Shown in pieces: positions 6,511-36,396 of a stretch of DNA of 50,581 nucleotides. Every line of letters begins with the position of its first letter. Position 1 is the stretch's first letter. The notes under the pieces were generated by a model that had not been told where the DNA came from, searched no databases, and was given only the letters and a program-made list of their open reading frames with translations. The translations under genes were made by a program, and so were the position numbers. The DNA comes from Bacteroidetes bacterium 4572_128 (lineage in GTDB: Bacteria > Bacteroidota > Bacteroidia > Bacteroidales > 4572-128): NCBI GenBank assembly GCA_002084355.1, contig NBLL01000001.1:1-50581 (forward strand). The letters run 5' to 3'.

Positions 6511-6516
6511 TTTTTA

Positions 6517-6560: not shown

Positions 6561-6587
6561 TAAATTATAAATTACAAAACATAAAAA

Positions 6588-7279: not shown

Positions 7280-7282
7280 AAA

Positions 7283-8410: not shown

Positions 8411-8488
8411 TAAAATTAATTTTTTATTGTAACTACAAGGGATATAATAATCATAAGACATTTGAACACTTATAAGAGTAGATTATGA

Positions 8489-13943: not shown

Positions 13944-14590
13944 ATTTAAAAAAAAAAAATTTTTTTTAAAAATGACCAAATTTTTAATTTTTAAAAAATG
14001 CCATTTTTTTTAATTTAAAAAAAAATCAAGATATAGAAACCTAATTTTTATTTTTTTCTTAATTTTTTTCTTCAATTTTTTTTTTTTAATAATTAAAAAA
14101 ACATAAAATTTTAACATTTTTTCTTCAAATTTTTTTTTAATAATTCAAAATCATAAAAATTTTAGTATTTTTTCAAAAAATTTTTTTTTTTAATAATTAA
14201 AAGCATAAAAATTTCGGCATTTTTTAAAAAATTTTTTTTTAATAATCATAAAAATTTCGGCGTTTTTTTGAAAAAACTTTTTTTATTATTATAAAAAAAT
14301 CATTAAAATAATTGGTTTTTTTGAAAAATTTTTTTTTAATAATTCAAAATCATAAAAATTTCGGCGTTTTCTTGAAAAAATTTTTTTTAACATTGTAGGT
14401 TAAAAAAAACCTCCAATGTTGTTTTTTTTAAAATATTAAAATTTTGGACGTTTTTTGAAAAAAATTTTTTTTATTGAAAATTAAAATATTTGAAATTTTG
14501 GACGTTTTTTGGAAAATTTTTTTTAAATTGAAAATTAAAATATTTAAAATTTTGGACGATTTTTGAAAAAAAATTTTTTTTTAATAAATT
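13944..14590. repeat. A/T-block repeat family, mixed-orientation array (A2)
   Basis: Forward units lie at 13944-14020 (cores TGACCAAA, TGCCATT). Reverse-oriented units run from about 14040 (CATAAAAATTTCGGCG..., TAAAATTTTGGACG...TTGAAAAAAA). Confidence 0.8.
14389..14420. repeat. AACATTGGAGGTT palindromic element, degenerate copy
   Basis: AACATTGTAGGTT, an A run, then AACCTCCAATGTT. One arm mismatch relative to the copies at 22.4 kb and 43.9 kb. Confidence 0.75.
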
Positions 14591-14593
14591 TTT

Positions 14594-14637
14594 AAATTTT
14601 TAAGAAATAAAAATTTATTTTTATTTCTTAAAAATTT
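14594..14637 (-). terminator. hairpin immediately downstream of the metallophosphoesterase gene
   Basis: 20-bp perfect stem AAATTTTTAAGAAATAAAAA / TTTTTATTTCTTAAAAATTT with loop TTTA, 7 nt past the stop codon. The stem is almost A/T-only and there is no clear T tract, so this is weak. Confidence 0.35.
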
Positions 14638-16445: not shown

Positions 16446-18383
16446 ATGTTAAAAAAAGAAATCGTAATTAAATTTACTAAATCGAAAGATATTGAAAAAG
16501 ACGAAGAAAAATCAATAAAGTCTTGGTTTGATGAATTCGCGGAATCAAAAAATGTAAAAATTTCTTGGACTTCAAAAAATATAAAAATAATAGATTTTTA
16601 TATTTTTAGATTTGAATCTATAATTTCAAACACAAATATTGAATTGTTGAAAAACTTAGAGAAGACAAAAAATAATAATGTTATTGTTTGTTTTAATTCC
16701 AGTTTATCAACAGAAATTAAAAATTATAATAATTTTAAAAAAAAGTTCCAATTAAAAAAAATGATAGAAAATTCAAGATATTTTAATTTAATAAAAATTA
16801 AATATTTTGAAGATAATTTAAAAATTGAATTTTTAAAATTTTTTGAAGATTTTTTAATAAAAAATGAATTAGATGAGCTATTAAAAATTCTCGTAAAAAA
16901 TAAAAATTTAAAAAATGATGGAGATTTTTTATTTAAAATTGGAGAACTTTATTATGAATTAAATATTCATAAAAAAGCTTTTGATTTTTTCAAAAAATCT
17001 ATGAATTTTTTAGAAGAAAATTCAAAAAATAAATTTTTTATTTATCAAAACTTATCTGATATTTATAAAGAAAAATCTGATTTAAAGAATGCTTTGAAAT
17101 ATGGAAAATTATCTAATAATTTTCTTTTAAATAATTCTAAAATGAATAATTCTGAAATAATTTATTGTTATAATAATTTGGGAGATATTTATTTAATGAA
17201 TAAAAAATATTTAAAAGCAATTTTATTTTTTGAAAAATCTATAAAAATTTTAGAAAAAGAAAAATTACAAACAGAACTTTATTTTATTTACGATAAAATA
17301 GTTTCTTGTTATTACAAATTAGACGATTTACAAAATCAATATAAATATTTAAAAAAAGCCTTAGATTTTCAAATAAAATTTTCTAAAAACAAAATAAATT
17401 CAAAAATTGCTTTTTTTTATGACAGGTGTGGAAATTTAGCTTCACAACTTAAAGAAGATAAAAATGCTTTAAATTATTATCTTAAAAATTTGGAGATTAT
17501 GGAAAAAATTTTACATCCGAATCATTCCGCTTTATCCAGTTTTTATAATAAAGTAAAAAATGCTTATTTTTCTTTGAAAAAATTTGATAAAGCTTTAAAA
17601 TATTCTTTGCGAGAATTAGGTTATGATATAAAAAATTTATCAGAAAAACATCCAGCATTAGCAAGTTCTTATAATGATGTCGGCGAACATTATTTTTATT
17701 TAAAAGATTATAAAAATGCCTTAGAAAATTATTTAAAAGCATTAGAAATTATTGGAAAACCAGACTCAAGAGAATTAAGTTTTTATTATGTAGATGTGAT
17801 AAAAACTTATGAAAAATTAAAAGATTTTGAAAATGTTTTAAAATATGAGTTAGAATTTTTATCTGAAATACCTTTTCTCGAAAGAGAAAATGATATGGAA
17901 TTATCTTTATTATGCAATTCCATTGCAAAAAAATTTTCTCATAAAAAAGATTTTGAATTAGCAATAAAATATAATTTGAAATCTATAAAATCAATAAAAA
18001 ATAGTCCTGAAATTGATAAAAATGTTTTGGCTTTTTATTATAAAAGTCTTAGCGAAAATTATATGGAAATAAAGAATTATGATAGAGCTTTAAAATATGT
18101 TTTAATAGCTTTAAAATTTCTAAAAAAATATAATTCTAATGAATATAAAACGATGGTAGAATTTCATAATGCAATTAGTTTTAATTATTTTAGAATTGGT
18201 GAGAGTAAAAATTCTTTATTTCATTTGAAAGAAAGTTTAAAAATTGCTAAAAAAGTTTATGATAAAAATGATTATAGTATTTTTTCCATTTATGGTTATT
18301 TAAAAGTAGTTTATGAAAAAATTGGAGATTTAAAAAATTCCAAAATAGTTCAGAAAATTATTGACGATATTAAGAAAAAATAA
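16446..18383 (+). CDS. TPR-repeat protein (kinesin-light-chain-type TPRs)
   Basis: 645 aa with more than 10 repeats of the pattern ...YNNLGDIYLMNKKYLKAILFFEKSIKI.... Confidence 0.8.
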   Translation: MLKKEIVIKFTKSKDIEKDEEKSIKSWFDEFAESKNVKISWTSKNIKIIDFYIFRFESIISNTNIELLKNLEKTKNNNVIVCFNSSLSTEIKNYNNFKKKFQLKKMIENSRYFNLIKIKYFEDNLKIEFLKFFEDFLIKNELDELLKILVKNKNLKNDGDFLFKIGELYYELNIHKKAFDFFKKSMNFLEENSKNKFFIYQNLSDIYKEKSDLKNALKYGKLSNNFLLNNSKMNNSEIIYCYNNLGDIYLMNKKYLKAILFFEKSIKILEKEKLQTELYFIYDKIVSCYYKLDDLQNQYKYLKKALDFQIKFSKNKINSKIAFFYDRCGNLASQLKEDKNALNYYLKNLEIMEKILHPNHSALSSFYNKVKNAYFSLKKFDKALKYSLRELGYDIKNLSEKHPALASSYNDVGEHYFYLKDYKNALENYLKALEIIGKPDSRELSFYYVDVIKTYEKLKDFENVLKYELEFLSEIPFLERENDMELSLLCNSIAKKFSHKKDFELAIKYNLKSIKSIKNSPEIDKNVLAFYYKSLSENYMEIKNYDRALKYVLIALKFLKKYNSNEYKTMVEFHNAISFNYFRIGESKNSLFHLKESLKIAKKVYDKNDYSIFSIYGYLKVVYEKIGDLKNSKIVQKIIDDIKKK

Positions 18384-18403
18384 ATTTAAAATAAAAAAAA
18401 TAA

Positions 18404-18411
18404 TATTTTTG
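18404..18411 (+). promoter_or_regulatory. -7 promoter box (TATTTTTG) for atpDC
   Basis: Exact TAnnTTTG, 23 nt upstream of the atpD ATG. Confidence 0.45.
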
Positions 18412-18431
18412 TAAAAATTAAAAGAAATTAA

Positions 18432-19946
<1,515 letters not shown>

Positions 19947-19962
19947 AAAAATTTATAAAATT

Positions 19963-20205
19963 ATGTTTTTAGAGATAATTACTCCGGATAAAAAGATCTT
20001 TGAAGGAGAAATAAAATTAATACAAATGACTGGAATTGATGGTTCTTTTGAGATTTTGAAAAACCACGCTCCTATAGTTTCAATTTTGGAAAAGGGCAAT
20101 ATAAAAATTTTAGACGAAAATGATAAAAAATTTTTTTTTGAAATTGATGGCGGCGCAATAGAAGCAAAAAATAATAAAATTATTGTGCTTGCTGATAATT
20201 TTTAA
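19963..20205 (+). CDS. atpC: F0F1 ATP synthase subunit epsilon (short form)
   Basis: 80 aa immediately after atpD, with the N-terminal beta-sandwich pattern (LEIITPDKKIFEGEIKLIQMTGIDGSFEILKNHAPIVSIL). Confidence 0.8.
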   Translation: MFLEIITPDKKIFEGEIKLIQMTGIDGSFEILKNHAPIVSILEKGNIKILDENDKKFFFEIDGGAIEAKNNKIIVLADNF

Positions 20206-20207
20206 AT

Positions 20208-20251
20208 AAAAAGAATAATGGAATATTTAAATATTTCATTATTCTTTTTTT
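20208..20251 (+). terminator. rho-independent terminator after atpC
   Basis: AAAAAGAATAATGGAATATTT / AAATATTTCATTATTCTTTTT forms a 21-bp stem with one G-U position. It ends in a T run, 3 nt after the stop. Confidence 0.6.
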
Positions 20252-20935
20252 AATTAAAAAAAATTTTTTTCAAAAATCGTCCAAAATTTTAATGTTTTTT
20301 TTAAATTGAAATTCTAAGTACACGACAAAAGTTTAAAAATGTTTATTTTTACTTTTTTTGCTGTGTTTAATAATTGATTTGTAATTTGATTTAATCCGAA
20401 ATAAATATTGTGATTTCTTTTCTTTTATGTTTTTTAGTTTTTATTTTTTTTCCATTTTTGGATGTTTTAATGATTTTTTAAAATTAAAAAAAAATTTTTT
20501 TTTCAATAAAATGCGGATTTTTAATGATTTTTTAAAATTAAAAAAAAATTTTTTTTTCAATAAAATGCGGATTTTTTAATAATTTTAAAATTCAATAAAA
20601 TGCGGATTTTTTAATAATTTTAAAAATTGAAAAAAAATTTTTTTTTCAATAAAATGCGGATTTTTAATGATTTTTTAAAATTGAAAAAAAATTTTTTTTT
20701 CAATAAAATGCGGATTTTTAATGATTTTTTAAAATTAAAAAAAAATTTTTTTTTCAATAAAATGCGGATTTTTTAATAATTTTAAAATTTTAAAATTAAA
20801 AAAAAATTTTTTTTTCAATAAAATGCGGATTTTTTAATAATTTTAAAAATTAAAAAAAAATTTTTTTTTCAATAAAATGCGGATTTTTTATTATTTTAAA
20901 ATTAAAAAAAATTTTTTTTTAATTAAAAAATTATA
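20252..20935 (+). repeat. A/T-block repeat family array (A3), private core TGCGGA
   Basis: One CGTCCAAAATTTTAATG unit at about 20275, a non-repeat island at about 20300-20455, then 8 units of ...A8-9 T9 CAATAAAATGCGGATTTTTAATGATTTT.... Spacing is mostly 54 bp (ATGCGG at 20511, 20565, 20600, 20654, 20708, 20762, 20823, 20877). Confidence 0.85.
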
Positions 20936-20960
20936 ATTATAATTGTAAAAAAATTAAAAA

Positions 20961-21199
20961 ATGCCAACATTAACAAGAATTAAAGGTTTTATTATTAGAA
21001 TGTTTTATAAAGATCATCCCCACCACATTTTCATGTAAATAATAATGAAAGAAATGGTATTTTTGATTTAAAAAATTTGAATATGTTTCAAGGAAATCTT
21101 TCGGAGAAAGAACAAAGAGAAATTAAAAAATGGGCATATAACAAACAAAATAAATTAAAAAAAATGTGGGAAACTCAAGAAATTACAAAATTAAATTAA
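20961..21199 (+). pseudogene. DUF4160-family protein, single frameshift
   Basis: MPTLTRIKGFIIRMFYKDH then, after a 1-nt frame change at CATCCCCACC, PPHFHVNNNERNGIFDLKNL...EIKKWAYNKQNKLKKMWE. This reproduces the MPxIxxFxGIxIxMYxxDHxPPHFH signature. Confidence 0.6.
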
Positions 21200-21210
21200 T
21201 TAATTTAATC

Positions 21211-21474
21211 ATGAAATATCCTCGTATAAATTATATAGAAATATTAGAAAATTATAAAATTTTTGTTATTTTTAATAATGGACAAATTAAAATTTATTCA
21301 GTTTCTAATTTATTAAATGAAAAACCATTTACGGCATTTAGAGATAAAAATTTATTTCTAAATGCTAAAAAAGAACAAAATGGTTATGGAATTATTTGGA
21401 ATGATGAAATAGATATAAGCGAATACGAAATTTGGAAAAATGGAAAAAATATTATAAACTTAAAAAATCTTTAA
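21211..21474 (+). CDS. DUF2442-family protein (usual partner of DUF4160)
   Basis: MKYPRINYIEILENYKIFVIFNNGQIKIYSVSNLL...YGIIWNDEIDISEYEIW. The ORF track extends to 21166, but the ATG at 21211 fits the family. Confidence 0.6.
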   Translation: MKYPRINYIEILENYKIFVIFNNGQIKIYSVSNLLNEKPFTAFRDKNLFLNAKKEQNGYGIIWNDEIDISEYEIWKNGKNIINLKNL

Positions 21475-21642
21475 ATTTAAATTAAAAAAAAATTTTTTTT
21501 CAATAAAATGTTATTTTTTAATGTTTTTTAAAAATTAAATAAAAAAATTATTTTTTATTTATTTTTTTTAAATTTGCAATTTATTTATATAAAAATAAAT
21601 AAAATCAAGAAATCAAATTTTTAAATTTAAAAACATAATATT

Positions 21643-21972
21643 ATGCAAATATACAAAATAGCGGATCAAGAATTAGATTTAAAAAAATTAATTAATGAAC
21701 AAAGAAAAGAACCAATTATTTTAAAAAATAATTCTGGTAACAGTTTTCTATTAATGCCGTTTTCGGAAAATAAAATGAATGATATTTTTCTTATGCTTTA
21801 TAAATCGTTTGAAGATTTGAATAAACCTTCATTTGAAAAATCTCAAAAGAAGAAAAAATACAAAATGACCGGCAAAGAATTTATTGAAAAATGGAGTGGA
21901 ACATTAAACGAGAATGATATTGAAAACTGGAAAGAAGACAGATATAAATATTTAATGGATAAACACAAATGA
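21643..21972 (+). CDS. putative antitoxin of a PIN (VapC-like) toxin
   Basis: 109 aa. Its stop overlaps the ATG of the downstream PIN remnant in an ATGA arrangement. The N-terminus resembles Phd/YefM-type antitoxins. Confidence 0.45.
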   Translation: MQIYKIADQELDLKKLINEQRKEPIILKNNSGNSFLLMPFSENKMNDIFLMLYKSFEDLNKPSFEKSQKKKKYKMTGKEFIEKWSGTLNENDIENWKEDRYKYLMDKHK

Positions 21973-22313
21973 AAAAATTATATAAGGTATATTTTGATAC
22001 AAATATTCTTTTAGATTTTGCATTAAAACGCAAAAAATTCAATACCGTTGCCGCACAATTCATTATATTATTTCAAAACATAGAAACAGAACATTAGCAT
22101 TAGAATTTGTTAATGATCTAATGAATATTTTTGAAATCGCAGAATTTGATAAAAAAATTATTCAAAATGCTTTAAACTCTGATTTTAAAGATTTTGAAGA
22201 AGTTTTCTGCAATTGATTCCAATGTAGATATCATTGTTACAAGAAATATCAAAGATTTTAAAACTTCGCAACTAAAAGTATATAAACCAGAACAGTTTAT
22301 CAAATATTTTTAA
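21969..22313 (+). pseudogene. PIN-domain toxin remnant
   Basis: MKKLYKVYFDTNILLDFALKR... at the 5' end and ...DIIVTRNIKDFKTSQLKVYKPEQFIKYF at the 3' end are typical PIN ends. The middle is broken by several stops and frame changes. Confidence 0.55.
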
Positions 22314-22335
22314 CGAAAATCTTAAAACATTTTCA

Positions 22336-22900
22336 AACATTGGTGTTAAAAAAAAAACTCCAATCCAGTGTTAAAAAATTTTTTTCAAAAATCGCCCAAA
22401 ATTTTAAGATTTTTAAAAAAACAACATTGGAGGTTTTTTTTTAAACCTCCAATGTTTGATGTCGAAACATTGGAGGTTAAAAAAAAAACCTCCAATGTTT
22501 TATTTGAATTAAAAAAAATTTTTTTGAAAAAAATGTCCAAAATTTTAAGATTTTTAAAAAAACAACATTGGAGGTTTTTTTTTAAACCTCCAATGTTTGA
22601 TGTCGAAACATTGGAGGTTAAAAAAAAAACCTCCAATGTTTTAAAAAATTTTTTTTTCAAAAAAACGTCCAAAATTTTATGATTTTTTATTTGAATTAAA
22701 AAAAAATTTTTTTTCAAAAATCGTCCAAAATTTTAAGATTTTTTATTTCAATTAAAAAAAAATTTTTTTTTCAAAAAATGCCTAAAATTTTAATGTTTTT
22801 TAATCTCAAAATTAAAAAAATTTTTTTCAAAAAACGCAATTATTTTAATGAATTTTATAATTAAAAAAAAAAAATTAAATTTGTTTTTTTATAAAAAATT
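22336..22900 (+). repeat. composite repeat region (A4): A/T-block units plus paired AACATTGGAGGTT palindromes, with a 141-bp tandem duplication
   Basis: The double-hairpin module at 22423-22500 is repeated at 22564-22641, an offset of exactly 141 bp. A degenerate copy lies at 22336-22372. A/T-block units with cores CGCCCAAAA, TGTCCAAAA, CGTCCAAAA, TGCCTAAAA and CGCAATTA follow, up to 22875. Confidence 0.85.
22876..22883 (+). promoter_or_regulatory. -7 promoter box (TAAATTTG) for the ATPase operon
   Basis: Exact TAnnTTTG, 22 nt upstream of the ATG at 22906. Confidence 0.4.
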
Positions 22901-22905
22901 AAAAA

Positions 22906-24294
22906 ATGTTTAATTTATATTTGAATAATTACCGAAATTTTGTCAATCAAAAATTTGAGTTTTCTCGTTTTAATATTCTCATAGGTGAAAATAGTTCTGG
23001 AAAAAGTTCTATTTTAAAATTTCTTTTGATGCTCAAACAAAGCCTACAACAAAATGAGTTAAATTTAAAATTTAAAGGTAATTTAGTAGATTTAGGTAAA
23101 TATACAGATGTTATTCATCAACATAAAGAAAATAAAAAAATAACATTTGGGTTTGAATTAGGAGAAGAATTTGATATTTTTTTTGAGAAAAATTTATTAA
23201 GAAATTTTCCTAAAGAAGGAGATATTTCTGAATATAAAAAAATCTTGCAAAATATTTTTTTTGGAGAAAAAACTTTTATTTCTTTTATTTTAGATAGAAA
23301 TCTAAATTCTCATAAATCTATTGAAATTAAAATTAAAAATAAAAAAGTTGGTGAAATAGAAATTAAATTTCGAGATAATATTAATAATATTTTTGCTGAG
23401 CAACATCAGGCAGATATTACTTTTAAAAATAATAAAGGTAAGTTTATTATACATAAAAAATTATCCTATCAAAAACATGCTTTTTTAGCATTTTTCTCAT
23501 TTAGAGAAATAGAAACAAATGATATAAATAAGCAATATATAAATTATTTATCTCTTTCTTTCACTTATCTAATGGGATCAATTTTTAATATTCAATATAT
23601 CAATCCTATAGAATCAAGTCCTGAAAGAATTTTTTTAGAAGAAGACAATAAAGGTTTAGTACCAGTCAGAAATTTAAAAGATGTCATAAATATTTTAAAT
23701 GATACTTCTATTGAAGATAGAGATTTATTATTGAATAAATTAAATAAAATTTTACAAGATTTTGGAATTATTAAAGATTTAAAAGTAATCAAAGCAAGTA
23801 ATATAAGTGTTTTTGAATTACAAGTAAAAACTGTAAATAGTAATATTTGGTGTAATATTATGGATGTTGGTTATGGTGTAAGTATGCAAATTCCTATATT
23901 TTTTCAAATTATAATCTCTGAATTTTCAACAAAAAAACAAGAAATAATATCTGAACTATTTACAGAAAAAGTTGAAACTATTTTAATTGAGCAACCGGAA
24001 ATACATATTCATCCAAAGTTACACGCAAAATTTATAGAAACCTTAGCGAAAATTGAAAAGAAAAATACTTATATTATAGAAACACATAGCGAACATATTA
24101 TTAGAATGTTGCAAGTGCTTGTTAAAAATAAAACGCTTAAATCTTCCGATGTTTCCATTCATTATTTTAAAAATGGAAAAGATAAGTTTGATGTCAGCAA
24201 ACACGAAATTGAAGAAACAGGAATGTTAAAACCTTGGCTACCAGAAGAGTTTTTTGACAATTCTTATCATTTATCTTTACAACTTTTAGACTAA
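22906..24294 (+). CDS. AAA_15/AAA_21-type (ABC-like) ATPase with a DUF3696-like C-terminus
   Basis: Walker A GENSSGKSS at residues 27-35. A long insertion is followed by DVGYGVSMQIPIF, Walker B/D-loop ILIEQPEIHIHP and the H-loop IIETHSEHII. The C-terminal tail (VSIHYFKNG...) is as in COG4938/DUF3696 proteins. Confidence 0.8.
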   Translation: MFNLYLNNYRNFVNQKFEFSRFNILIGENSSGKSSILKFLLMLKQSLQQNELNLKFKGNLVDLGKYTDVIHQHKENKKITFGFELGEEFDIFFEKNLLRNFPKEGDISEYKKILQNIFFGEKTFISFILDRNLNSHKSIEIKIKNKKVGEIEIKFRDNINNIFAEQHQADITFKNNKGKFIIHKKLSYQKHAFLAFFSFREIETNDINKQYINYLSLSFTYLMGSIFNIQYINPIESSPERIFLEEDNKGLVPVRNLKDVINILNDTSIEDRDLLLNKLNKILQDFGIIKDLKVIKASNISVFELQVKTVNSNIWCNIMDVGYGVSMQIPIFFQIIISEFSTKKQEIISELFTEKVETILIEQPEIHIHPKLHAKFIETLAKIEKKNTYIIETHSEHIIRMLQVLVKNKTLKSSDVSIHYFKNGKDKFDVSKHEIEETGMLKPWLPEEFFDNSYHLSLQLLD

Positions 24295-24299
24295 AAAAA

Positions 24300-24572
24300 A
24301 TGGACGTTTTATTGCACATAGATATTATTGCTCAATATTTTAAAAATAAATTATCTGTTGATATTTTTAATGAAGAATTTATTTTAATTAAAAATTTTTT
24401 TGAAAAAAATGATGATAATTTTAAAATTATTTTAACACAAAATATAATTCAAAATGTAAAAAAAAGTTTGAAAAACCATTATGCGTCATCGTCCACGCTT
24501 GATTTCGGAAATCAAGCGTGGACGATGACGCATAATGGATTAATACAGAAAAAATTTTCTATGAATAATTAA
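24300..24572 (+). CDS. small hypothetical protein, carries an in-frame 63-nt palindromic insertion
   Basis: 90-aa ORF starting 5 nt after the ATPase stop. Residues YASSSTLDFGNQAWTMTH are encoded by the palindrome at 24476-24538. No family recognised. Confidence 0.4.
   Translation: MDVLLHIDIIAQYFKNKLSVDIFNEEFILIKNFFEKNDDNFKIILTQNIIQNVKKSLKNHYASSSTLDFGNQAWTMTHNGLIQKKFSMNN
24476..24538. repeat. 63-bp G/C-rich perfect palindrome (30-bp arms, 3-nt loop)
   Basis: CCATTATGCGTCATCGTCCACGCTTGATTT CGG AAATCAAGCGTGGACGATGACGCATAATGG. The arms are exact reverse complements. G/C content is far above the surroundings. Confidence 0.9.
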
Positions 24573-24627
24573 ATTTTAATTTAAAAATATTTTTTTTAAT
24601 TGTGAACATATTTAAAAAATAAATATT

Positions 24628-26679
24628 ATGATAACAAATAATTTTTTCCAAGATTTTGATTTTCAGATTTTAAATTCTAATGATTTCAAAGAAGATGCGG
24701 TTAGAGAAGAATTAATTAACCCTATTTTAAAAAAATTAGGATATAAGGCTTACGGAAATAATAGAATAATTTACAGTAAAACGCTTTCACATCCTTTTGT
24801 AAAAATAGGCTCGGGAAAAAGAAAAATAAATATTATTCCAGATTATTTATTTTCTGTAAATGACCAATATACTTGGGTACTTGACGCAAAAGCTCCAAAT
24901 GAAAAAATTATAAATAGTGATAATGTTGGGCAAGTTTATTCTTATGCAATTCACCCAGAAAGAAAAAGAACCATTATTATTTTTTCAGCTTAACAAAATT
25001 GATAAACACTGGAACGAAATACAAAAATTATTATCTCCGGATATTTTTACAGAAAAACAAATTAAAAAAAAAGAAAAAAAAGAAGAAAAGAAAAATAATA
25101 ATTTTAATTATTTAGATTGTAAATTACCGAAATCTATTAAAGTAAAAAAACAAGCTGTAAAACGACATTATGGCGTACATGGTTATTTTACAAGACAAAG
25201 TTGGGATATTTTACAACATTATATTAAAAATTTCACCAAAAAAGGAGATCTTATTTTAGATAGTTTTGCCGGAACCGGAGTAACTGCGATAGAGGCTTTG
25301 ATGCTCGAAAGAAAAGCAATTAATATAGATTTAAATCCGATGGTTATTTTTTTAACTAAAGCTTTAACTATTCCTGTTGATTTCGAAATTTTACAAAAAG
25401 AATTTGAAATAATAAAAATTGCTTTTGAAAAAGATTGTCCAGAAACAAATGAAGAAATTGAAATTTCTTTAAAAAAATACCCCTTTCCTCAAAAAAAAAT
25501 TTTTTCTAAAGGTGCTGATGTAAAAGATGTAGAATATTTTTAACATTTCATAACTCAAAAAGAGGAGGAGGTCATCCAGGAGCATTTCGTTATTATCGTT
25601 ATCGTATTGCTCCAAATCCATATTTATTAGATTTATCTTCACTTTTTGTTTCTCGTTATAAAAAAATTATAAAAGCGAAAAAAGAGATTTTACCTTTTAT
25701 TAATAAAAAAACGATAAAAAATTTACAAATTTACAAAGGTAGTGCTACGAATTTAGAAAAAATAAAAAATGAAAGTATTGACTATATTTATACTGACCCC
25801 CCTTATGGCTCAAAAATACATTATTTAGATTTGTCTGTAATGTGGAATGCTTGGCTTGATTTAGAAGTCAGCGAAAAAGACCGCAATTTAGAAGCAATAG
25901 AAGGCGGAAGTAAAAATAAAAGCAAAGATGAATATGCCGAATTACTGCAAATTTCTATTAAAGAAATGTATAGAGTTTTAAAATTTAATCGTTGGATGTC
26001 TTTTGTTTTTGCTCATAAAGACCCACATTATTGGCATATAATTGTAGATACTGCCCAGAAATGCGGTTTTGAATATATTGGCGTTGTGAAACAATCCAAT
26101 GGACAAACGAGTTTTAAAAAACGTCAAAATCCTTTTTCGGTTTTGTCTGGTCAATTAATTATTAATTTTATCAAAAAAGAGCGTCCTTTATCAATTAATA
26201 AAATTAAATTAGGTGAGATTTATGATTTGGTTATAAATACTATAGAAAATATTATAGCCACCAATGACGGAGCTACCATAGAAGAAATTAATGATGAGTT
26301 AATTATCATGGGTTTAGAACATGGTTTTTTGCATATTTTAAGCAAAGAATATAAAGATTTAACGCCGATTTTGGTTTCAGAATTTGATCATAACCAAGAA
26401 ACAGAAAAATTTTATATTCGTAAAAACAGCAAATTTAAAAGTAAAATACCTTTAGATATGCGTATTAAATATTTTCTTTTTTCTTATTTTAAACAAAAAG
26501 AACGAGAAGATATTTATCCGACAACAGATAATATAATTTTGGATATTATGCCGCTTCTACAAAATGGAATTACTCCGGATGATCAAACAATTTTAATTAT
26601 TTTACGTTCCTTAGCAAATCCAATGAAAGATAATAAATGGAAATTAAAAGAAAAAGACCAGATAAAAATTTTTTTTTGA
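24628..26679 (+). pseudogene. PD-(D/E)xK (HsdR_N-type) nuclease-like domain fused to an N6A/N4C DNA methyltransferase; at least 2 frameshifts
   Basis: The gene is read in three frames: 24628-24993, 24917-25543 and 25519-26679. The N-terminus is EDAVREELINPILKKLGY...IPDYLF...WVLDAKAP (HsdR_N-like with PD...DAK). Motif I is LILDSFAGTGVTAIEALMLERKAINIDLNP. Motif IV is IYTDPPYGSKIHYLDLSVMWNAWL, reached only by reading the frame upstream of the called ORF at 25831. Both shifts lie in A/T homopolymer contexts. Confidence 0.7.
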
Positions 26680-26950
26680 AAAAACGGCGATTATTTTAAT
26701 GATTTTTGATAATTAAAAAAAAATTTTTTCCAAAATTCGTCCAAAATTTTAATGTTTTTAAAATTTAAAATTAAAAAAAATTTTTTTTCAAATTCGTCCA
26801 AAAATTTAATGTTTTAAAAATTAAAAAAAATTTTTTCAAAAAAATGACCAAAATTTTAACATTTTTAATTTCGAAAATAAAAAATGTTAAAATTTTTTTT
26901 CAAAAAAATGACCAAAATTTTCAATTTTTTTAAATGTTCAGAATGTCAGA
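26680..26950 (+). repeat. A/T-block repeat family array (A5)
   Basis: Five units with cores CGGCGATTA, TTCGTCCAAAA, TTCGTCCAAAAA, TGACCAAAA and TGACCAAAA. The array begins at the methyltransferase stop codon. Confidence 0.85.
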
Positions 26951-26954
26951 GCAA

Positions 26955-28028
26955 TTAATTTTTTTTCATTAAGTATAATGTTCCTTTATTTTTTCCAATT
27001 GTTTTCAATATTTTTTCATTTCTTAGATAGCTCAAATCCTTTTTTATTGTATTACGTGAAAATCCCTTTAAATGTTTCATTAAATCACCAATTTTCATAG
27101 GTTGATATTTTATTATCAAATTTTTTATTAATTTTTGTCTATGGTTTAAATATATTTTTGTATCCCTGTAAATTTCATATTTTTTTTCTAATCTCTTAAT
27201 TAGAATTCTCATACTGTCTAAAAAATATAATATCCAATTATCTATTTTTTCCTTATCTGTATATCTGTTTTTTTGCCCTTCCATTAGAGTTTTATAATAA
27301 TTTTTTTTACTGTCTTCAATTACTTTTTCAAAGGAAACATACTGCACAAATAAATATTCTTGTTGTAATAATAAAAATGTTGTTAATAATCTTGATAATC
27401 TACCATTTCCGTCTTGAAATGGGTGAATTGATAAAAATTCATAAACTAAAATTGCAATTATTATCAAAGGATGATTTTCTGCTTCGAAAAAATTGTTATT
27501 TGTCCAAAGTATTAAATCCGACATTTCTTTATCAACCAAATGAGGTTCTGTTGTTTTAAAGATAATTTTTTGAGTTCCGTCCGGATAAGTTGCAACAACT
27601 TTATTAGTCAATTGTTTATACTTGCCTTTGTGTCTTTCATCTTTATGACTGTATTTTAATAAAATACTGTGTAATTGTTTTATGAAATTTTCACTTAGTT
27701 CTATATTTTCATAATTGTCAATTACAATATCTAAGCTTTCCCAATAACCGATAACTTCTTGTTCATCTCTTGTTTTTAATTTGTCAATATTGATTCTAGT
27801 AACAACTTTTGCAATTTCTTTGTCTGTTAATTTGACACCTTCAATTCTTGTTGAAGAGCCAATACTTTCAATTGTTGCAATTTTTCGTAACTCTTGCAAA
27901 TGGCGATTTTCTTTTGTTTCTATGATATTCCATTTTCCTTTGAAAGTATCAATAAAACTTATTTTTTTCAATATCTGCTGACTTGTTTTAAGACTGAAAT
28001 TTAATTTCTGATTTATCAAATTATCCAT
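26955..28028 (-). CDS. Fic family protein (Fic_N, Fic core, C-terminal winged-helix)
   Basis: Fic motif HPFQDGNGRLSRLL. The N-terminal inhibitory-type motif SxxxEG is present (SSTRIEG). The C-terminus is wHTH-like (IGDLMKHLKGFSRNTIKKDLSYLRNEKIL). The start is taken at the ATG at 28028 (MDNLINQ...), because the longer ORF to 28091 would include the predicted promoter. Confidence 0.85.
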   Translation of the reverse strand: MDNLINQKLNFSLKTSQQILKKISFIDTFKGKWNIIETKENRHLQELRKIATIESIGSSTRIEGVKLTDKEIAKVVTRINIDKLKTRDEQEVIGYWESLDIVIDNYENIELSENFIKQLHSILLKYSHKDERHKGKYKQLTNKVVATYPDGTQKIIFKTTEPHLVDKEMSDLILWTNNNFFEAENHPLIIIAILVYEFLSIHPFQDGNGRLSRLLTTFLLLQQEYLFVQYVSFEKVIEDSKKNYYKTLMEGQKNRYTDKEKIDNWILYFLDSMRILIKRLEKKYEIYRDTKIYLNHRQKLIKNLIIKYQPMKIGDLMKHLKGFSRNTIKKDLSYLRNEKILKTIGKNKGTLYLMKKN

Positions 28029-28101
28029 ATTATATAGTATTATATCCAAAAATATTTTTGCAAATATATTATATATCCAAAAGGTATCCAAATTATATCC
28101 A
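28021..28101. promoter_or_regulatory. five helically phased TATCCA repeats (candidate operator or iteron)
   Basis: TATCCA occurs at 28022, 28043, 28074, 28085 and 28096, all in the same orientation. Spacings are 21, 31, 11 and 11 bp. The repeats span the fic start codon and its promoter box. Confidence 0.4.
28061..28068 (-). promoter_or_regulatory. -7 promoter box (TATATTTG on the minus strand) for fic
   Basis: Plus strand reads CAAATATA, 32 nt upstream of the ATG at 28028. Confidence 0.4.
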
Positions 28102-28129
28102 TAAAAATATTAAATTTTATCAGATTTTA

Positions 28130-28294
28130 ATTTAAATCGTCAAAATTTTCAATTTTTAACGAAAAAAATTTTTCCAAAAAAACGCCCAAAATTTTAACAT
28201 TTTAATTTAGAGTTAAAAAAATTTTTTCAAAAAAATGACCAAAATTTTAACATTTTAATTTTGAAAAAATTTTTTCAAAAAAATGACCAAAATT
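28130..28294 (+). repeat. A/T-block repeat family array (A6)
   Basis: Units with cores CGTCAAAA, CGCCCAAAA, TGACCAAAA and TGACCAAAA. Confidence 0.8.
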
Positions 28295-29242
28295 TTATAA
28301 TTTATTTTTTAATAAGTTATCAAAATAATTTATTGTTTTTATCAAACCTTCTTCCAACTGAATTTTTGGTGCCCAGTTATTTAGATTTTTTTTTGCTAAT
28401 TTAATATCTGGTTTTCTTTGCATAGGGTCGTCTTTTGGCAAAGGAAAATAAGTTATTTTAGAATTAGAATTTGTCAATTTTATAACTTTTTTAGCTAATT
28501 CCATAATGGTAAATTCATTAGGGTTTCCAATATTTACAGGACCAATAAATTCATCATTAGTATTCATCATTCTTATCATTCCTTCAACTAAATCGTCCAC
28601 ATATTGAAAACTTCTTGTCTGCAAACCATCACCGTAAATGGTAATATCTTCATTTTTTAAAGCCTGAATGATAAAATTAGAAACTACTCTACCATCTTTT
28701 TTATGCATACGAGGTCCATAAGTATTAAAAATTCTAACAATTTTAATTTTGACATTGTTTAATTGGTGATAATTCATAAATAAAGTTTCCGCACATCTTT
28801 TGCCTTCGTCATAACAAGCACGCAAACCAATAGGATTTACATTTCCCCAGTAACTTTCTTTTTGTGGATGAACTTTTGGGTCTCCATAAACTTCACTTGT
28901 TGAAGCTTGTAAAATTTTTGCTTTTTTTCGTTTAGCAAGTCCAAGCATATTTATCGCTCCCATTACAGAAGTTTTTACTGTTTTTATGCCGTTTTCTTGA
29001 TAATGAATTGGAGACGCTGGACAAGCTAAATTATAAATTTGTTCAACTTCTGCATAATATGGCATAATAATATCATGTCTAACTAATTCAAAATAAGGAT
29101 ATTTTAATAAATGAACAATATTTTTTTTGTCTCCGGTAAAATAATTATCTAAACAAATAATATCATTTCCTTCGTTCAATAATCTTTCGCAAAGGTGCGA
29201 ACCAACAAAACCAGAACCACCAGTAATTAAAATTTTTTTCAT
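28295..29242 (-). CDS. UDP-glucuronate decarboxylase (UDP-xylose synthase-like SDR)
   Basis: [33 protein letters not shown], catalytic YDEGKR, overall UXS-type sequence. Confidence 0.85.
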
Positions 29243-30018
29243 AATACAAATTTATTTTTTTTTTATTATTTAAAATAAAAAATTTTTTTTCAAAAAATGG
29301 CAATTATTTTAAGATTTTTTTCAAAAAAATGACAATTTTTTAATGATTTTTTATAATTAAAAAAAAATTTTTTTTCAAAAAACGTCCAAATTTTAATGTT
29401 TTTCAAATTAAATTAAAAAATTTTGGCTATCGAACCTTTTTGTGGAGGGAAATTTTTTCATAATAAAATTGTGAAAAATTTGTGTTTTTTTTTTAATATT
29501 TTTTAAAATTTTTTATTTCAAATCGTCACTAAAGCATTAAAAATCAATGCTTTGTAAAAAGATGCAACGAAATCATCGTGGACGATGAATCATTTTGTGT
29601 CCAAAATTTTAATATTTTTAAAATTAAAAATAAAAAAAATTTTTTCAAAATTCGTCCAAAAATTTAATGTTTTTAAAATTAAAAATAAAAAAAATTTTTT
29701 CAAATTCGTCCAAAAATTTAATGTTTTTAAAATTAAAATTTAAAAAAAAATTTTTTTCAAATTCGTCCAAAAATTTAATATTTTTTAATTTCAAAAATAA
29801 AAAAAATTTTTTTCAAATTCGTCCAAAAATTTAATGTTTTTAAATTTAAAAAATTTTTTTTTCAAATTCGTCCAAAAATTTAATGTTTTTAAAATTAAAA
29901 TTTAAAAAAATTTTTTTTTTGAAAAATCCAAATATTTTTTAATCTCAAAAATCCAAATATTTTAATATTTTATTTCAAAAATAAATTTTTCAAAATTGCG
30001 TTTTTTTTTAATGTTTTT
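29243..30018 (+). repeat. A/T-block repeat family array (A7), interrupted by about 200 bp of unique sequence
   Basis: Units at 29283-29400 have cores TGGCAATTA, TGACAATTT and CGTCCAAA. Unique sequence at 29401-29600 contains a half copy of the 63-bp palindrome at about 29570-29595. Five units of about 57 bp carrying TTCGTCCAAAAATTTAAT lie at 29650-29885. Degenerate units follow to 30018. Confidence 0.85.
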
Positions 30019-30453
30019 TCAAAATTTGGATATTTTTTTTAAAGCAAAATTTAAAATTTCTTTGTGGTCGAAAGCAAGTTCTTTTATGTTTTTTACAGCG
30101 ACCCATTTTAAATTCATAGCATCATCTTTTGCTTTTGGAAATATTTTTTCTTTTTCTACAAAAGTAAAATAAACTATAGAAATTGTTCTTCCTCTTGGGT
30201 CTCTTTTCACTTTTCCAAAAGTCTTTAATTGTTTTAAATCAATATTTTCAATACTTGTTTCTTCTTTTAATTCTCTTAAAACTGCTTCTTTTAAATTTTC
30301 ATCTTCATTAACAAAACCTCCGGGAAATGCCCAATAATATTGAAAAGGTGGATATTTTCTTTGTATAAGTAAAATCTCTAATTCATCATTTTTTTTAGAA
30401 AAAAGAATGGCATCTACTGTTACTGCTGGACGTGGATAATCATATTTATACAT
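30019..30453 (-). CDS. NUDIX hydrolase
   Basis: Nudix box GGFVNEDENLKEAVLRELKEETSI. Confidence 0.8.
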   Translation of the reverse strand: MYKYDYPRPAVTVDAILFSKKNDELEILLIQRKYPPFQYYWAFPGGFVNEDENLKEAVLRELKEETSIENIDLKQLKTFGKVKRDPRGRTISIVYFTFVEKEKIFPKAKDDAMNLKWVAVKNIKELAFDHKEILNFALKKISKF

Positions 30454-30470
30454 AATTTTGAAATTTTTTT

Positions 30471-30507
30471 ATAATTATCAAAAAAAAAAAAATTTTTTGA
30501 TAATTAT
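30471..30507 (-). terminator. A/T hairpin between the DUF1015 gene and the NUDIX gene
   Basis: ATAATTATCAAAAAA, A7, then TTTTTTGATAATTAT: 15-bp perfect arms. There is no T tract after it on the minus strand, so this is weak. Confidence 0.3.
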
Positions 30508-30517
30508 AAATTTTAAA

Positions 30518-31676
30518 TTATTTTAAAGAGTGAAATACTAAACCACTTCTTAATTTTGGCTCGAACCAAGTTGTTTTTGGAGGCATAATTTTATCATTAT
30601 CAGCAATATCCATCAATTGTTTCATACTAACAGGATATAAAGCAAAAGCAACTTTCATCTCTCCAGAATCAACACGTTTTTTTAATTCACCAATTCCACG
30701 TATTCCTCCAACAAAATCTATACGTTTAGAACGTCTCAAATCTAAAATATTAAGATGTGGCTCTAAAATATGCTCATAAATACATAGAAAAATTATGTAA
30801 TTTATTTGGTTTATATTCTTCTTTTTTTTCACAAATAACAAAATTTTCTTTTAATTTTGTTATAAATTCTTCATCAGACATTCCATTTAAATCTTTTACA
30901 ACTCTATTGTAATCAATAATTGTAAGCTGACTTTCTGGAAAATTTACAGACATAAAAAAATTATATTCTTCATCTCCATTGTGATTTGGATTATTATTTT
31001 TTCTCTCTTCACCAACCAAAGCAGCAGCAGCAGTTCTGTGATGTCCATCAGCAACATAAACAAATGGAATTTCTTTATCAAAAATTTCCGTAATTCTTTT
31101 TATTGTTTTATCGTTATTAATAATCCAAAAATGATGTCCAACTTCATCGTCAGTTTTAAAATCATATTCTGCTTTTTCTTTTACCGTTTTTTCTATAATT
31201 TCATTAATTTCTTTATTATCCCTAAAAGCAAAAAATACTGGTTCAGCGTTTGCATCTGTATAACGAACATGATTCATTCTATCCTCTTCTTTATCTGGTC
31301 TTGTCAGTTCATGTTTTTTTATAATATTATTATTATAATCTTCAACAGAACTACACGCAACAATACCATATTGAGTTTTCCCCCACATAGTTTGTCCATA
31401 AATATAAAATTTATCTTTCTCATCTTGAAAAAACATCCCACTATCGACAAGAGATTTCAAATTTGATTTTGCTTTGTTGTAAAGAATTTCACCATGTAAA
31501 TCTACATCTTTCGGAAGATCTACTTCTGGTTTTACAACATGTAAAAAAGAATGAGGATTTCCTTTTACTTCTTCTCTCGCTTCATCAGAATTTAGAACGT
31601 CATAGGGACGAGAAGCAATTTCATTTACATTATCCTTTTTAGGACGAAAACCTTTAAATGCTCTTAGAACAGCCAT
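30518..31676 (-). pseudogene. DUF1015-family protein, internal deletion plus frame change
   Basis: ORF 30774-31676 is the DUF1015 N-terminal 300 aa (MAVLRAFKGFRP...ASRPYDVL...). ORF 30518-30841 carries the family C-terminus (...RIDFVGGIRG...AFALYPVSMKQLMDIADNDKIMPPKTTWFEPKLRSGL) in another frame. The junction is ...NFSMYL | EHILEPHLNILD. From memory, about 40 residues are missing. Confidence 0.65.
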
Positions 31677-31704
31677 TTATAATTTTTTTAAATTTATTGA
31701 ATTA

Positions 31705-31712
31705 CAAAGATA
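31705..31712 (-). promoter_or_regulatory. -7 promoter box (TATCTTTG on the minus strand)
   Basis: Plus strand reads CAAAGATA, 28 nt upstream of the start codon at 31676. Confidence 0.35.
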
Positions 31713-31758
31713 ATTATATTTTTAAAAATGAAAAAAAAAAAATTTTGAAAATATTTTT

Positions 31759-32952
31759 TTAAAATGAAATTTTTGTATATGGTAAAAGCTCCTTAATTTT
31801 TTGCATTTCATCTACATCAAAAAAATTTCCATATAATAATAATTCTTCTAAATTTTTTAGTTCAGAAATTTCTTCTGGCAATTTTTTTAGTTTATTATTT
31901 GCAATATAAAAAAATCTCAAATTCTTTAAAAACCCAATTTCATAAGGTAAAAATTTAATATAATTATTTAATAAATTTAAAGTTACAAGATTTTCTAAAT
32001 CTCCAATTTCAAAAGGCAAAAAAGTAATTTGATTTTCATTAGCAATTAATTCTGATAGGTTTTCCATCTTACCAATTTCTTCTGGAAAGCTATGTAAATA
32101 ATTATAACTTACATCAATAACTTCTAATTTTTTCATTTTTTCTATTGTTTTTGGAATTTCGTCCATTCGATTTCTTACAACAAATAATAATTTCAAATTT
32201 TTTAACTTTCCTATTCCATCAGGTAATTTTCTAATTCTATTTTCATTGAGATTTAAAAGTTCTAAATTCTTTAATTTTTTTATATTATCAGGCAAAATTT
32301 CAATTTTATTATCATAAAGATATAATTCTTTTAAATTTTTAAATTTTTTAATTTCGTTGAAAGTTTTTTCAAAATCTAAATATGGATTGTTTGAAATATC
32401 TAAAACCTCAATATTTTTTAATTTTCTTAATTTATTTGGATTAATAAGCATTGTGCTTGATAAAAGCAATTTTCTTAAATCTTGCAAATTTTGTAATTTT
32501 TCAAAAGCGTCTTCAAAATTTAAATTTTGATTTCCTCCAATATTTAAAGAGATTAATTTTTTTAATTTTGAAATATTAGAAGGTAAAGTATCTATAAAAT
32601 TATTGAATAAATTTAGTTCTTTCAAATTTTGAAATTCACTTAAAATCTCAAAAACATCGGTAAAATTTAGTTTTTGATTTCCTGAAAGGTTCAAAATTTC
32701 TAATTCTTCAAAATGTAAAATTTCAAAATCTAAGGTATCAAAAAAATTATTGCTTAAATCTAACTCTTTTAAGTTTCCAAATTTATAAAGTTGTTTAGGA
32801 ATTTTTCCAATTCCTGTTTCTTTTAAGGAGAAACGATAAACTTCTTCCGGATTTTTTAATCCTTCATTTATATTCTTATAAAGCTTTTCTTCCTGAGAAA
32901 ATATTTGTAAAAAATAAACAAAAAAAGATAATGTTAAAAAAATTTTTTTCAT
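31759..32952 (-). CDS. secreted leucine-rich-repeat (LRR) protein
   Basis: Signal peptide MKKIFLTLSFFVYFLQIFSQ, then about 14 LRR units (LxxLxLxxNxLxxLPxxIxxLKNL). The ORF extension to 33012 runs into the repeat array and is probably not translated. Confidence 0.85.
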   Translation of the reverse strand: MKKIFLTLSFFVYFLQIFSQEEKLYKNINEGLKNPEEVYRFSLKETGIGKIPKQLYKFGNLKELDLSNNFFDTLDFEILHFEELEILNLSGNQKLNFTDVFEILSEFQNLKELNLFNNFIDTLPSNISKLKKLISLNIGGNQNLNFEDAFEKLQNLQDLRKLLLSSTMLINPNKLRKLKNIEVLDISNNPYLDFEKTFNEIKKFKNLKELYLYDNKIEILPDNIKKLKNLELLNLNENRIRKLPDGIGKLKNLKLLFVVRNRMDEIPKTIEKMKKLEVIDVSYNYLHSFPEEIGKMENLSELIANENQITFLPFEIGDLENLVTLNLLNNYIKFLPYEIGFLKNLRFFYIANNKLKKLPEEISELKNLEELLLYGNFFDVDEMQKIKELLPYTKISF

Positions 32953-33012
32953 AAATATTTTTTTGCAAAATAATAATTTTTTATTTTTATAAAAAAAACG
33001 CCATTTTTTCAA

Positions 33013-33360
33013 AAAATATTTTTCAAAAAAACGCTAAATTTTTAATGATTTTAAATTAAAATTTTTTTATTTGAAATTATTAAAAAAAAATTTTCCAAAA
33101 ACGCCAAAATTTTTAATTTTTATTTCAAAAAATATTTTCCAAAAAACGCCAAAATTTTCAATTTATTTAAAAAAAAATTTTTCCCAAAAACGCCAAAATT
33201 TTTAATTTATTTAAAAAAATATTTTTCCAAAAAACGCCAAAATTTTTAATTTATTTAAAAAAATATTTTCCAAAAAAACGCCAAAATTTTTGATTTTTAT
33301 TTCAAAAAAAATTTTTCCAAAAAACGCCAAAATTTTCATGATTTTATTTTTCAATAAAAA
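33013..33360 (+). repeat. A/T-block repeat family array (A8), core CGCCAAAA
   Basis: Seven units of about 45-55 bp: ...TTTTTCCAAAAAACGCCAAAATTTTTAATTTATTTAAAAAAA.... Confidence 0.85.
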
Positions 33361-33413
33361 AATTTAAATTTATATCGTTTTTTATTTTTTTTTATTTTAA
33401 ATAAAAATTATTT

Positions 33414-36170: not shown

Positions 36171-36179
36171 ATTATTCAT

Positions 36180-36330
36180 AATTTCAAAATTAAAAAAATT
36201 TTTTTCAAAAATCATTCAAAATTTTAAATTTTTTAAATCAAAATAAAAAAATTTTTTTCAAAATTCGTGAAAATTTCAATATTTTGATTTAAAAATAATT
36301 TTTCAAAATTCGTGAAAAATTTAATATTAA
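36180..36330 (+). repeat. A/T-block repeat family, three degenerate units (A9)
   Basis: Cores TCATTCAAAA, TTCGTGAAAA and TTCGTGAAAAA, each followed by TTT(C/T)AA(A)T. Confidence 0.6.
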
Positions 36331-36396
36331 AAAAAACATTTTTTTTATTAAAATGTTTTTTTTAATATTGAATTCAAAAATTTTTAATTTTAAATT

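Follow-up and report, generated by a model that had tools for sequence, protein, structure and literature searches.

Two probably independent and decayed defence modules, placed side by side by a deletion, in an AT-rich Bacteroidales genome

Menshen (NsnA-NsnB-NsnC) is an antiphage system reportedly described by Millman et al. in 2022. Its NsnA component combines DUF262 with ParBDB, NsnB is an AAA_15 ATPase with DUF3696, a non-canonical Walker B motif and a GxG signature, and NsnC joins an inactive PIN domain to a nuclease; in models of the system, the N-terminal part of NsnC is the region docking onto the DUF3696 tails, and one class of NsnC effectors, PB-PLD1, has a conserved 'HDR' motif and a likeness to NucT (PMC12065111). 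HEC-03 consists of an ABC ATPase and a PIN-domain protein; phage defence has been shown for it and both genes are required (bioRxiv 10.1101/2024.01.29.577857). Here we describe a locus of Bacteroidetes bacterium 4572_128, located in a stretch of 50,581 nucleotides (nt) of contig NBLL01000001.1 (positions 1 to 50,581, hereafter the window), in which a DUF3696-type ABC ATPase (gene 1), a short open reading frame (ORF; gene 2) and a nuclease-methyltransferase fusion (gene 3) follow one another. A preliminary description of this DNA had proposed that the three form one defence operon of novel composition. We consider it likely that they are instead two independent defence modules in a variable island, pushed together by a deletion and both decayed.

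The source organism is an uncultured, very AT-rich member of the Bacteroidales (approximately 22% GC; 15-35% GC per kilobase across the window), whose AtpD shares 99% identity with that of the uncultured Bacteroidales metagenome-assembled genome (MAG) GMC9.metabat2.18 and approximately 80% with those of other Bacteroidales. The comparison drew on three further assemblies of this organism, namely L080 (a 59.8-kb scaffold from ENA) and the NCBI assemblies L081 and L082, all showing 100% identity to the window over kilobases; on a sister genome (L166 and L167); on nine close genome loci of the gene 1 ATPase (L001-L009); on its closest metagenomic relative (L085); and on loci of distant DUF3696 ATPases (L012-L079). 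The plus-strand ORFs of the locus lie at 22906-24294 (462 amino acids, aa) and 24300-24572 (90 aa) and are followed by pieces from 24628 on, with gaps of 5 and 55 nt. The shared strand and the gaps had been given correctly, as had all the quoted motifs (GENSSGKSS, IEQPEIHIHP, ETHSEH, PD...DAK, DSFAGTG...IDLNP and TDPPYGSKIHYLDLSVMWNAWL), the third gene being fragmented, though. The features of the locus are as follows.

22906-24294, plus strand: gene 1, an intact 462-aa ABC-type ATPase, NsnB-like (Pfam, PADLOC, homologues)
24300-24476, plus strand: codons 1-59 of gene 2, the stump of the partner gene of the ATPase (57/59 match to P0243, the partner in the sister genome; BLASTP match to the L085 partner)
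24476-24538, no strand: perfect palindrome with a 30-bp stem and a 3-nt loop (fold; match at L166 7795-7831), read as the tail of the 90-aa ORF, which ends at 24572
24628-24959, plus strand: gene 3, piece A (codons 1-111 of 743), with most of the HsdR_N-type nuclease domain including PD72 and D86-A-K88 (alignment with L080, L081 and L082)
24960-25538, plus strand: gene 3, piece B (codons ~131-323), with the linker and motif I (DSFAGTG) and a Pfam N6_N4_Mtase match (positions 95-213); no longer in the reading frame of A and C
25539-26679, plus strand: gene 3, piece C (codons ~364-743), with motif IV (TDPPYG), the remainder of the methyltransferase core and the C-terminal helical domain (PglXI, 1.7e-31)

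The two modules occur near each other only in the lineage of the window and in the sister genome, and in the latter they are clearly separate. There (L166), the 462-aa ATPase is followed after 5 nt by a 284-aa partner, then by approximately 960 nt with two opposite-strand ORFs, and only then by a 746-aa methylase with 92% identity to intact gene 3. By blastn, L166 positions 5261-7095 correspond to window positions 22640-24475, and L166 from 8649 onward to the window from 24539 onward; the synteny is thus broken at 24475/24539 in the window versus 7095/8649 in L166, where approximately 1.55 kb in the sister genome is represented by 63 nt in the window. The deletion, which is also present in L080, L081 and L082, removed codons ~60-284 of the effector, i.e. 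three quarters of the partner gene, together with the downstream spacer. The palindrome at this junction has an RNA fold of -54.9 kcal/mol (z = -13.5) and its arm is unique in the window. In L166, a hairpin with a 13-bp stem is located after the stop codon of the partner; the palindrome is a rearranged copy of it in which part of this shorter hairpin appears to have been duplicated in inverted orientation, which suggests that the deletion arose through a hairpin-mediated rearrangement. The operon-like spacing of genes 1-3 is therefore due to the ~1.55-kb deletion and is not evidence of joint function.

The same comparison accounts for gene 2, which had been taken for a 90-aa protein of no recognisable family. 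A partner gene of about 285-300 aa lies directly 3' of the ATPase (0-4 nt) in all nine close loci, being intact in eight and fragmented in L007, and at the L085 locus an ATPase 51% identical to gene 1 precedes a 291-aa partner whose N-terminus shares 46% identity with gene 2 over 59 residues (BLASTP, E = 2e-12). Profile search with these partners retrieved P0243, the 284-aa protein encoded in the sister genome (L166/L167): residues 1-59 of gene 2 and of P0243 agree at 57 of 59 positions, the remainder of P0243 is missing from the window, and the last 31 codons of the 90-aa ORF come from the palindrome and from DNA that used to lie upstream of gene 3. Gene 2 is thus a 59-codon stump of a ~285-aa partner, extended by a translated palindrome. 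A tblastn search of the window with partners from distant Bacteroidota gave nothing significant for gene 2; its homology is clear only with the partners of the closest relatives.

Co-occurrence of the three genes, the lack of which the preliminary description had itself named as speaking against its trio, was not observed. In the neighbourhoods of gene 3 homologues, surveyed to 7 kb in the best 80 loci among more than 550 genome matches, no homologue of gene 1 or of gene 2 and its full-length partner was found (0/80), and gene 3 had no conserved neighbour, the clustered ORF families being common to at most eight of these loci. Conversely, no gene 3 homologue is present at any of the nine close loci of gene 1.

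Gene 1 was identified as a DUF3696/AAA_15 (ABC-type) ATPase by both Pfam and PADLOC, in line with the earlier assignment. Pfam matches were to AAA_15 (1.5e-15), AAA_21 and DUF3696, the last with 22.0 bits, exactly at the gathering cut-off (22). The protein has the Walker A motif GENSSGKS, a non-canonical Walker B motif (ILIEQPE), a G-Y-G signature and the H-loop ETHSEH. The top PADLOC model was Menshen NsnB (5.9e-51, residues 3-455), with further matches to PDC-M55A, HEC-03B and AriA; matches to NCBIfam MAD3 (41 bits versus a cut-off of 420) and PtuA stayed far under the cut-offs. Homologues number in the thousands; the closest are approximately 460 aa long and share 40-51% identity with gene 1, and those from named organisms belong to Bacteroidota and, where NCBI gives a name, are called 'DUF3696 domain-containing protein'.

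The full-length partners, like gene 2 itself, had no match in Pfam, PADLOC (including any NsnC model) or NCBIfam. Their invariant residues are H236, R238 and W263, and they share the motif IHERK. An AlphaFold model built from four sequences has a mean predicted local distance difference test (pLDDT) score of 59.7, with values of approximately 65-80 over most of residues 140-290; the N-terminal part was modelled at low confidence, and an inactive PIN (inPIN) fold could not be confirmed there. Foldseek against the PDB matched the model to proteins of the phospholipase D (PLD) fold, namely Zucchini, NucT, Nuc, BfiI, PLD3, PLD4 and the C-domain of TrmBL2, with E-values of 1e-4 to 2e-2 and template modelling (TM) scores of 0.45-0.63 when normalised to the ~160-aa nucleases. 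On account of these matches and of the likeness of its H-E-R motif to the 'HDR' motif of PB-PLD1, we propose, at a moderate level of confidence, that the partner acts as an effector like NsnC, composed of an N-terminal adaptor region and a predicted C-terminal PLD-type nuclease domain. Comparison of the partner profile by hhalign with the 326-aa protein encoded 3' of the distant ATPase in L026 gave no significant match, and the Menshen paper (PMC12065111) was the only publication found in which an ATPase of this kind is paired with a PLD protein.

Module A, made up of genes 1 and 2, thus has several traits in common with Menshen. Gene 1 has NsnB as its top match, with an AAA_15 core, a C-terminal DUF3696 helix, the GxG signature and a non-canonical Walker B motif (E-Q in gene 1, E-N in NsnB), and in its relatives the intact partner lies directly downstream, as NsnC does, with an H-E-R PLD-like domain that resembles PB-PLD1. 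It differs from Menshen in that NsnA (ParB-DUF262 with ParBDB) is absent beside the ATPase in the window, in the sister genome and in the nine close relatives, and in that the partner, in the window down to 59 codons, escapes all PADLOC models. That ATPases of this type pair with DUF262 proteins, as stated in the preliminary description, is correct for Menshen (PMC12065111). In the close loci, however, the genes upstream of the ATPase encode unrelated housekeeping proteins (Lnt, an S41 peptidase, SecB) or are ORFs without assignment, none of them being DUF262 or containing a DGxQR motif; the window has only repeats and a toxin-antitoxin (TA) module upstream of gene 1 and no NsnA gene. With DUF262 absent upstream of the ATPase at all close loci, the Bacteroidota clade of gene 1 is, as judged by gene content, a two-gene ATPase-effector pair and not a strict Menshen system. 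HEC-03, likewise, has a DUF3696-type ABC ATPase followed by a small effector, and gene 1 matches the HEC-03 model with 8.8e-35, but the effector in the gene 1 clade has approximately 285 aa, is PLD-like by its model and gave no PIN match.

Module A would accordingly be a two-gene system of an ABC ATPase and an effector, of the kind of Menshen NsnB-NsnC, HEC-03, PARIS and Septu. By analogy with the Menshen models and HEC-03, the DUF3696-tailed ATPase would hold and control the ~285-aa effector, and the nuclease would be set free or switched on once the ATPase senses infection. In the lineage of the window, the deletion left this module without an effector, the 59-codon stump running into the palindromic scar. 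Because both genes are required in HEC-03, the ATPase would by analogy be useless without its effector, and module A, despite its intact ATPase ORF, can be regarded as dead with near certainty.

Among the loci of distant DUF3696 ATPases, those in L012-L079 mostly precede a protein of approximately 160 aa with a PIN-like N-terminus (...VVDTNV...), a layout like that of HEC-03. Very large ORFs were seen 5' of several distant ATPases, among them a DUF1156 methylase (L072) and a PglXI/COG1743-like methylase (L035), and others have SNF2-like (L015, L025) or type III Res-like (L068, L076) helicase ORFs at this position; no DUF262-type DGxQR motif was found in the large ORFs upstream. These large ORFs hint at larger composite systems around the ATPase family.

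Gene 3, which would form module B on its own, is intact in L080, L081 and L082, where it has 743 codons. Its family comprises the more than 550 genome matches mentioned above, all of approximately 745 aa and 53-68% identical across phyla, from Bacteroidota, Cyanobacteria, Chloroflexota, Desulfobacterota, Gammaproteobacteria and others, and is annotated as 'DNA methyltransferase' by the sources. Profiles agree with the earlier account of a fusion between an HsdR_N-type PD-(D/E)xK domain and a methyltransferase, of the N6_N4 type, in which motif I comes before motif IV. Gene 3 matches N6_N4_Mtase and, weakly, HSDR_N in Pfam; the intact protein matches N6_N4_Mtase (1.8e-17) and, in PADLOC, PglXI (2.5e-43) and MTase_II models, and its N-terminus matches the REase_MTase_IIG model (2.7e-6). 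When N-terminal domains were searched in isolation, HSDR_N was found in 17 of 17 members tested and MmeI_N, weakly, in 11 of the 17. Residues PD72, D86-x-K88 (D86-A-K88 in gene 3) and Q102 are invariant in alignments of 35 diverse members. Motif I (DxFxGxG) precedes motif IV (DPPY) by approximately 215 residues, with a helical insert of approximately 200 aa between them in the structure model. Together with the searches for AAA_15, AAA_21 and DUF3696, those for HSDR_N and N6_N4_Mtase bore out the domain calls of the preliminary description.

A PDB sequence profile search with the whole family found only beta-class methylases, matched on motif I, and one with the N-terminal domain found nothing meaningful; Foldseek with the full-length model returned mostly generic Rossmann methyltransferases. 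The methyltransferase is probably specific for N6-adenine, and the C-terminal helical domain may, going by the model, be the target-recognition part. From its architecture, module B would be a restriction-modification-type enzyme in a single polypeptide of approximately 745 aa, with an HsdR_N/MmeI_N-like PD-(D/E)xK nuclease domain, then a DPPY methyltransferase and then the C-terminal helical domain, and would need no partner gene. We infer a self-contained type IIG-like enzyme, which would methylate its own site and cut unmodified DNA, and for gene 3 alone the earlier term 'compact type IIG-like' seems reasonable.

In type IIG enzymes such as MmeI and BpuSI, too, a single polypeptide comprises an N-terminal PD-(D/E)xK nuclease, a methyltransferase and a domain at the C-terminus, and a partner gene is lacking, an architecture that holds for the intact L080 allele and not for the broken copy of the window. 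Gene 3 differs from them in its N6_N4_Mtase/COG1743-like methyltransferase (DPPY) with the ~200-aa insert, theirs being of the gamma-class N6_Mtase type (NPPY/F) with a target-recognition domain C-terminal to it, and in its length (~745 versus ~900-1000 aa), and its structural match to BpuSI is weak. With PglXI (BREX type 3), DrmMI/COG1743 and DUF1156-type methylases, gene 3 shares the methyltransferase core and the motif IV pattern DPPY-x6-Y-x-DLS-x4-W; the likeness of its motif IV to COG1743/PglXI-type methylases, pointed out earlier, is thus confirmed by the PglXI match (compare the DUF1156 protein of L072). In gene 3, however, the HsdR_N nuclease domain stands in place of DUF1156.

Membership of three known systems was considered and rejected. 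For BREX type 3 and DISARM, the NCBIfam model DUF1156_antiphage gave E-values of 0.018 and 0.0085, with 13-14 bits versus a cut-off of 1000, the companion genes (PglZ and BrxC; DrmA/B/C) are absent, and the 80 loci surveyed have no conserved neighbours. For MADS, the MAD3 match of gene 1 is the one given above, and the mad2 match (2.5e-9) is far under the MTase_II and PglXI matches. As regards Rlo-type modules, in which RloA/RloB-like genes sit between hsdM, hsdS and hsdR and to which the locus had been likened, no hsdM, hsdS or full hsdR was found among the ORF annotations of positions 18000-32000, which come from general annotation with no Rlo-specific profile.

Two observations concern sequence diversity in this family. 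Between L080 (7723-9954) and L166 (8738-10978), 45 of the 58 amino acid differences fall within residues ~320-413 of gene 3, in the helical insert that separates motif I from motif IV, where a 121-nt deletion of the window is also located; the cluster could stem from recombination, or the segment could be evolving fast and possibly determine specificity. Two diverged gene 3-type copies are present per genome in a Desulfococcaceae contig (JBFXEJ010000001.1; L139 and L094) and in one Ignavibacteria MAG (L147 and L152), which would fit restriction-modification-like enzymes of differing specificity.

In the window, gene 3 is not a single ORF. Compared with L080, L081, L082 and L166, 59 nt are missing after 24959 and 121 nt after 25538, which leaves three frame-shifted pieces (open frames 24628-24993, 24917-25543 and 25831-26679). 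Each deletion shifts the frame, and the window protein would end after 121 residues. Both missing segments encode residues conserved in all gene 3 homologues, and the 59-nt loss takes the conserved ...FALCNGxEF... strand. The junctions show microhomology of 1-3 nt only. Module B is thus inactivated in the window by two frameshifting deletions and intact in sibling assemblies.

A similar loss was noted close by. The PIN_3 toxin gene (window 21969-22213), part of the TA-like module upstream, is split in two frames, with approximately 58-64 nt missing at a junction near 22055-22060; in L080 it is intact, with 103 codons. All three window-specific deletions in the compared stretch are in toxin or defence genes (PIN_3 once, gene 3 twice); in the genes for ATP synthase, Fic and the epimerase, the window and L080 do not differ.

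Some points weigh against two decayed modules as described here. The ATPase ORF remains intact, and its 462-aa orthologue in the sister genome differs at 11 aa with a ratio of non-synonymous to synonymous substitution rates (dN/dS) of approximately 0.24; the ATPase may keep some role, or the loss of its effector may simply be recent, the 24 substitutions being weak evidence either way. The partner model is mediocre (the mean pLDDT and the four sequences given above), and the partner has H-x-R where the canonical motif reads HxK(x)4D, so that its nuclease activity is only predicted. The only multi-domain enzyme matched by the gene 3 model is BpuSI, and weakly (probability 0.80, TM 0.14); the gene 3 family has no characterised member as regards activity, recognition site or methylation, and its type IIG-like role is read from sequence. 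Finally, the deletions specific to the window could be assembly errors and not biology.

As to the role of gene 3, the family might consist of orphan DNA methyltransferases, in which the HsdR_N-like domain would be only DNA-binding or regulatory and no restriction would take place. The identity retained across phyla is more typical of orphans with a fixed function than of diversifying restriction-modification enzymes, and the annotation given by the sources is in keeping with it. We find this explanation possible and somewhat doubtful: the invariance of PD72, D86-x-K88 and Q102 in 35 diverse members points to a maintained active site, and the patchy occurrence across phyla, like the inactivation seen here at strain level, resembles that of mobile defence or selfish elements.

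Another possible explanation, which we regard as unlikely, is that the deletions in gene 3 and PIN_3 are artefacts of assembly or consensus calling and that gene 3 is truly intact as in L080. The three other assemblies of the organism are otherwise 100% identical to the window over kilobases and have an intact gene 3, and the two losses in gene 3 add up to 180 nt, which restores the downstream frame, an odd coincidence. However, junctions with 1-3 nt of microhomology contain no repeats able to collapse an assembly, losses of 59, 121 and approximately 58-64 nt are atypical for sequencing errors, and the restriction of all three to toxic or defence genes, with housekeeping genes untouched, fits a real strain-level inactivation.

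The single operon proposed initially, in which the ATPase and a 90-aa adaptor would supervise the nuclease-methylase fusion as one functional and undescribed defence system, is very improbable. The shared strand and the short gaps are compatible with it, as is the intact gene 3 that three assemblies of the organism have immediately 3' of the first two ORFs; moreover, some distant DUF3696 ATPases adjoin a methylase (PglXI/COG1743-like in L035, DUF1156-type in L072) or helicases. On the other hand, the genes do not co-occur at any of the 80 loci of gene 3 homologues or at the nine close loci of gene 1, in the sister genome the full-length partner and ~960 nt with opposite-strand ORFs stand between the modules, the supposed adaptor is a stump with a translated palindrome, and elsewhere members of the gene 3 family always stand alone. 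Just as improbable is a hybrid system newly born by the deletion. The ATPase and the 59-residue N-terminal stump of its effector, from the part that docks onto the DUF3696 tails in Menshen models, came to lie immediately ahead of the nuclease-methylase gene, and in L080-type strains the ATPase might then have taken over control of the type IIG-like enzyme or come to share its expression.

The genes annotated around the two modules include DUF2442, PIN_3 and Fic, and the earlier impression of a defence- or TA-like neighbourhood holds. The sister genome has, upstream of its ATPase (L166 199-5248), SMEK_N/CTD10, MC6 and DUF2326 genes as well as a further AAA_15 ATPase of 450 aa, whose 201-aa partner has no assigned family; these conflict-system genes are missing from the matching position of the window. 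The reading as a defence island is reasonable, and the content of the island differs between the two genomes.

The remaining features of the locus are intergenic.

22643-22876, no strand: tandem repeat array with units of approximately 56 nt, just 5' of gene 1 (Tandem Repeats Finder; dispersed blastn matches in the window)
22876-22883, plus strand: TAAATTTG box, 23 nt 5' of the gene 1 ATG, a possible Bacteroidota-type -7 element
26711-26934, no strand: tandem repeat array with units of approximately 31-57 nt, downstream of gene 3, of the same family as the upstream array

AT-rich tandem repeats of approximately 54-57 nt, with unit variants such as ...TTTTCAAAAAAACGTCCAAAATTTTAA..., occupy many intergenic spacers of this genome and flank the locus on both sides. 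Near it, the arrays are located at 20460-20928, 22335-22876, 26711-26934, 28162-28297 and 29284-29979; further arrays lie at about 7272-8420, 14077-14626, 32935-33428, 36179-36390 and 50403-50581. They are also present in the sister genome, their copy number varies among assemblies, and several spurious ORFs of 50-110 aa that had been listed for the window are translated repeat arrays. The promoter box that had been placed ahead of the operon is present as TAAATTTG, but is indistinguishable from background: TAnnTTTG occurs 100 times in the window versus 113 expected from shuffles, and at this chance frequency the promoter argument is without weight. A scan of the window for sigma-70 promoters and terminators likewise gave background level only.

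The novelty of this locus is modest and at the level of families: the domain calls made initially were right, and the trio as a system is not supported. In a shrinking, deletion-prone genome, operon-like spacing can be a scar and not a functional link, and a larger gene can leave a stump that passes for a short 'orphan' ORF. The intact and broken alleles in near-identical assemblies provide a small natural case of the loss of defence and toxin genes at strain level. Two leads follow for the families concerned. The first is the Bacteroidota pair of an ABC ATPase and a PLD-like effector, Menshen-like without the DUF262 sensor and with an effector outside the PADLOC models; this NsnA-less pair may be an undescribed minimal relative of Menshen. 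The second is the widespread and highly conserved ~745-aa nuclease-methylase fusion with a COG1743-like core and no characterised member, which may represent an uncharacterised, unusually conserved class of single-chain restriction-modification enzymes.

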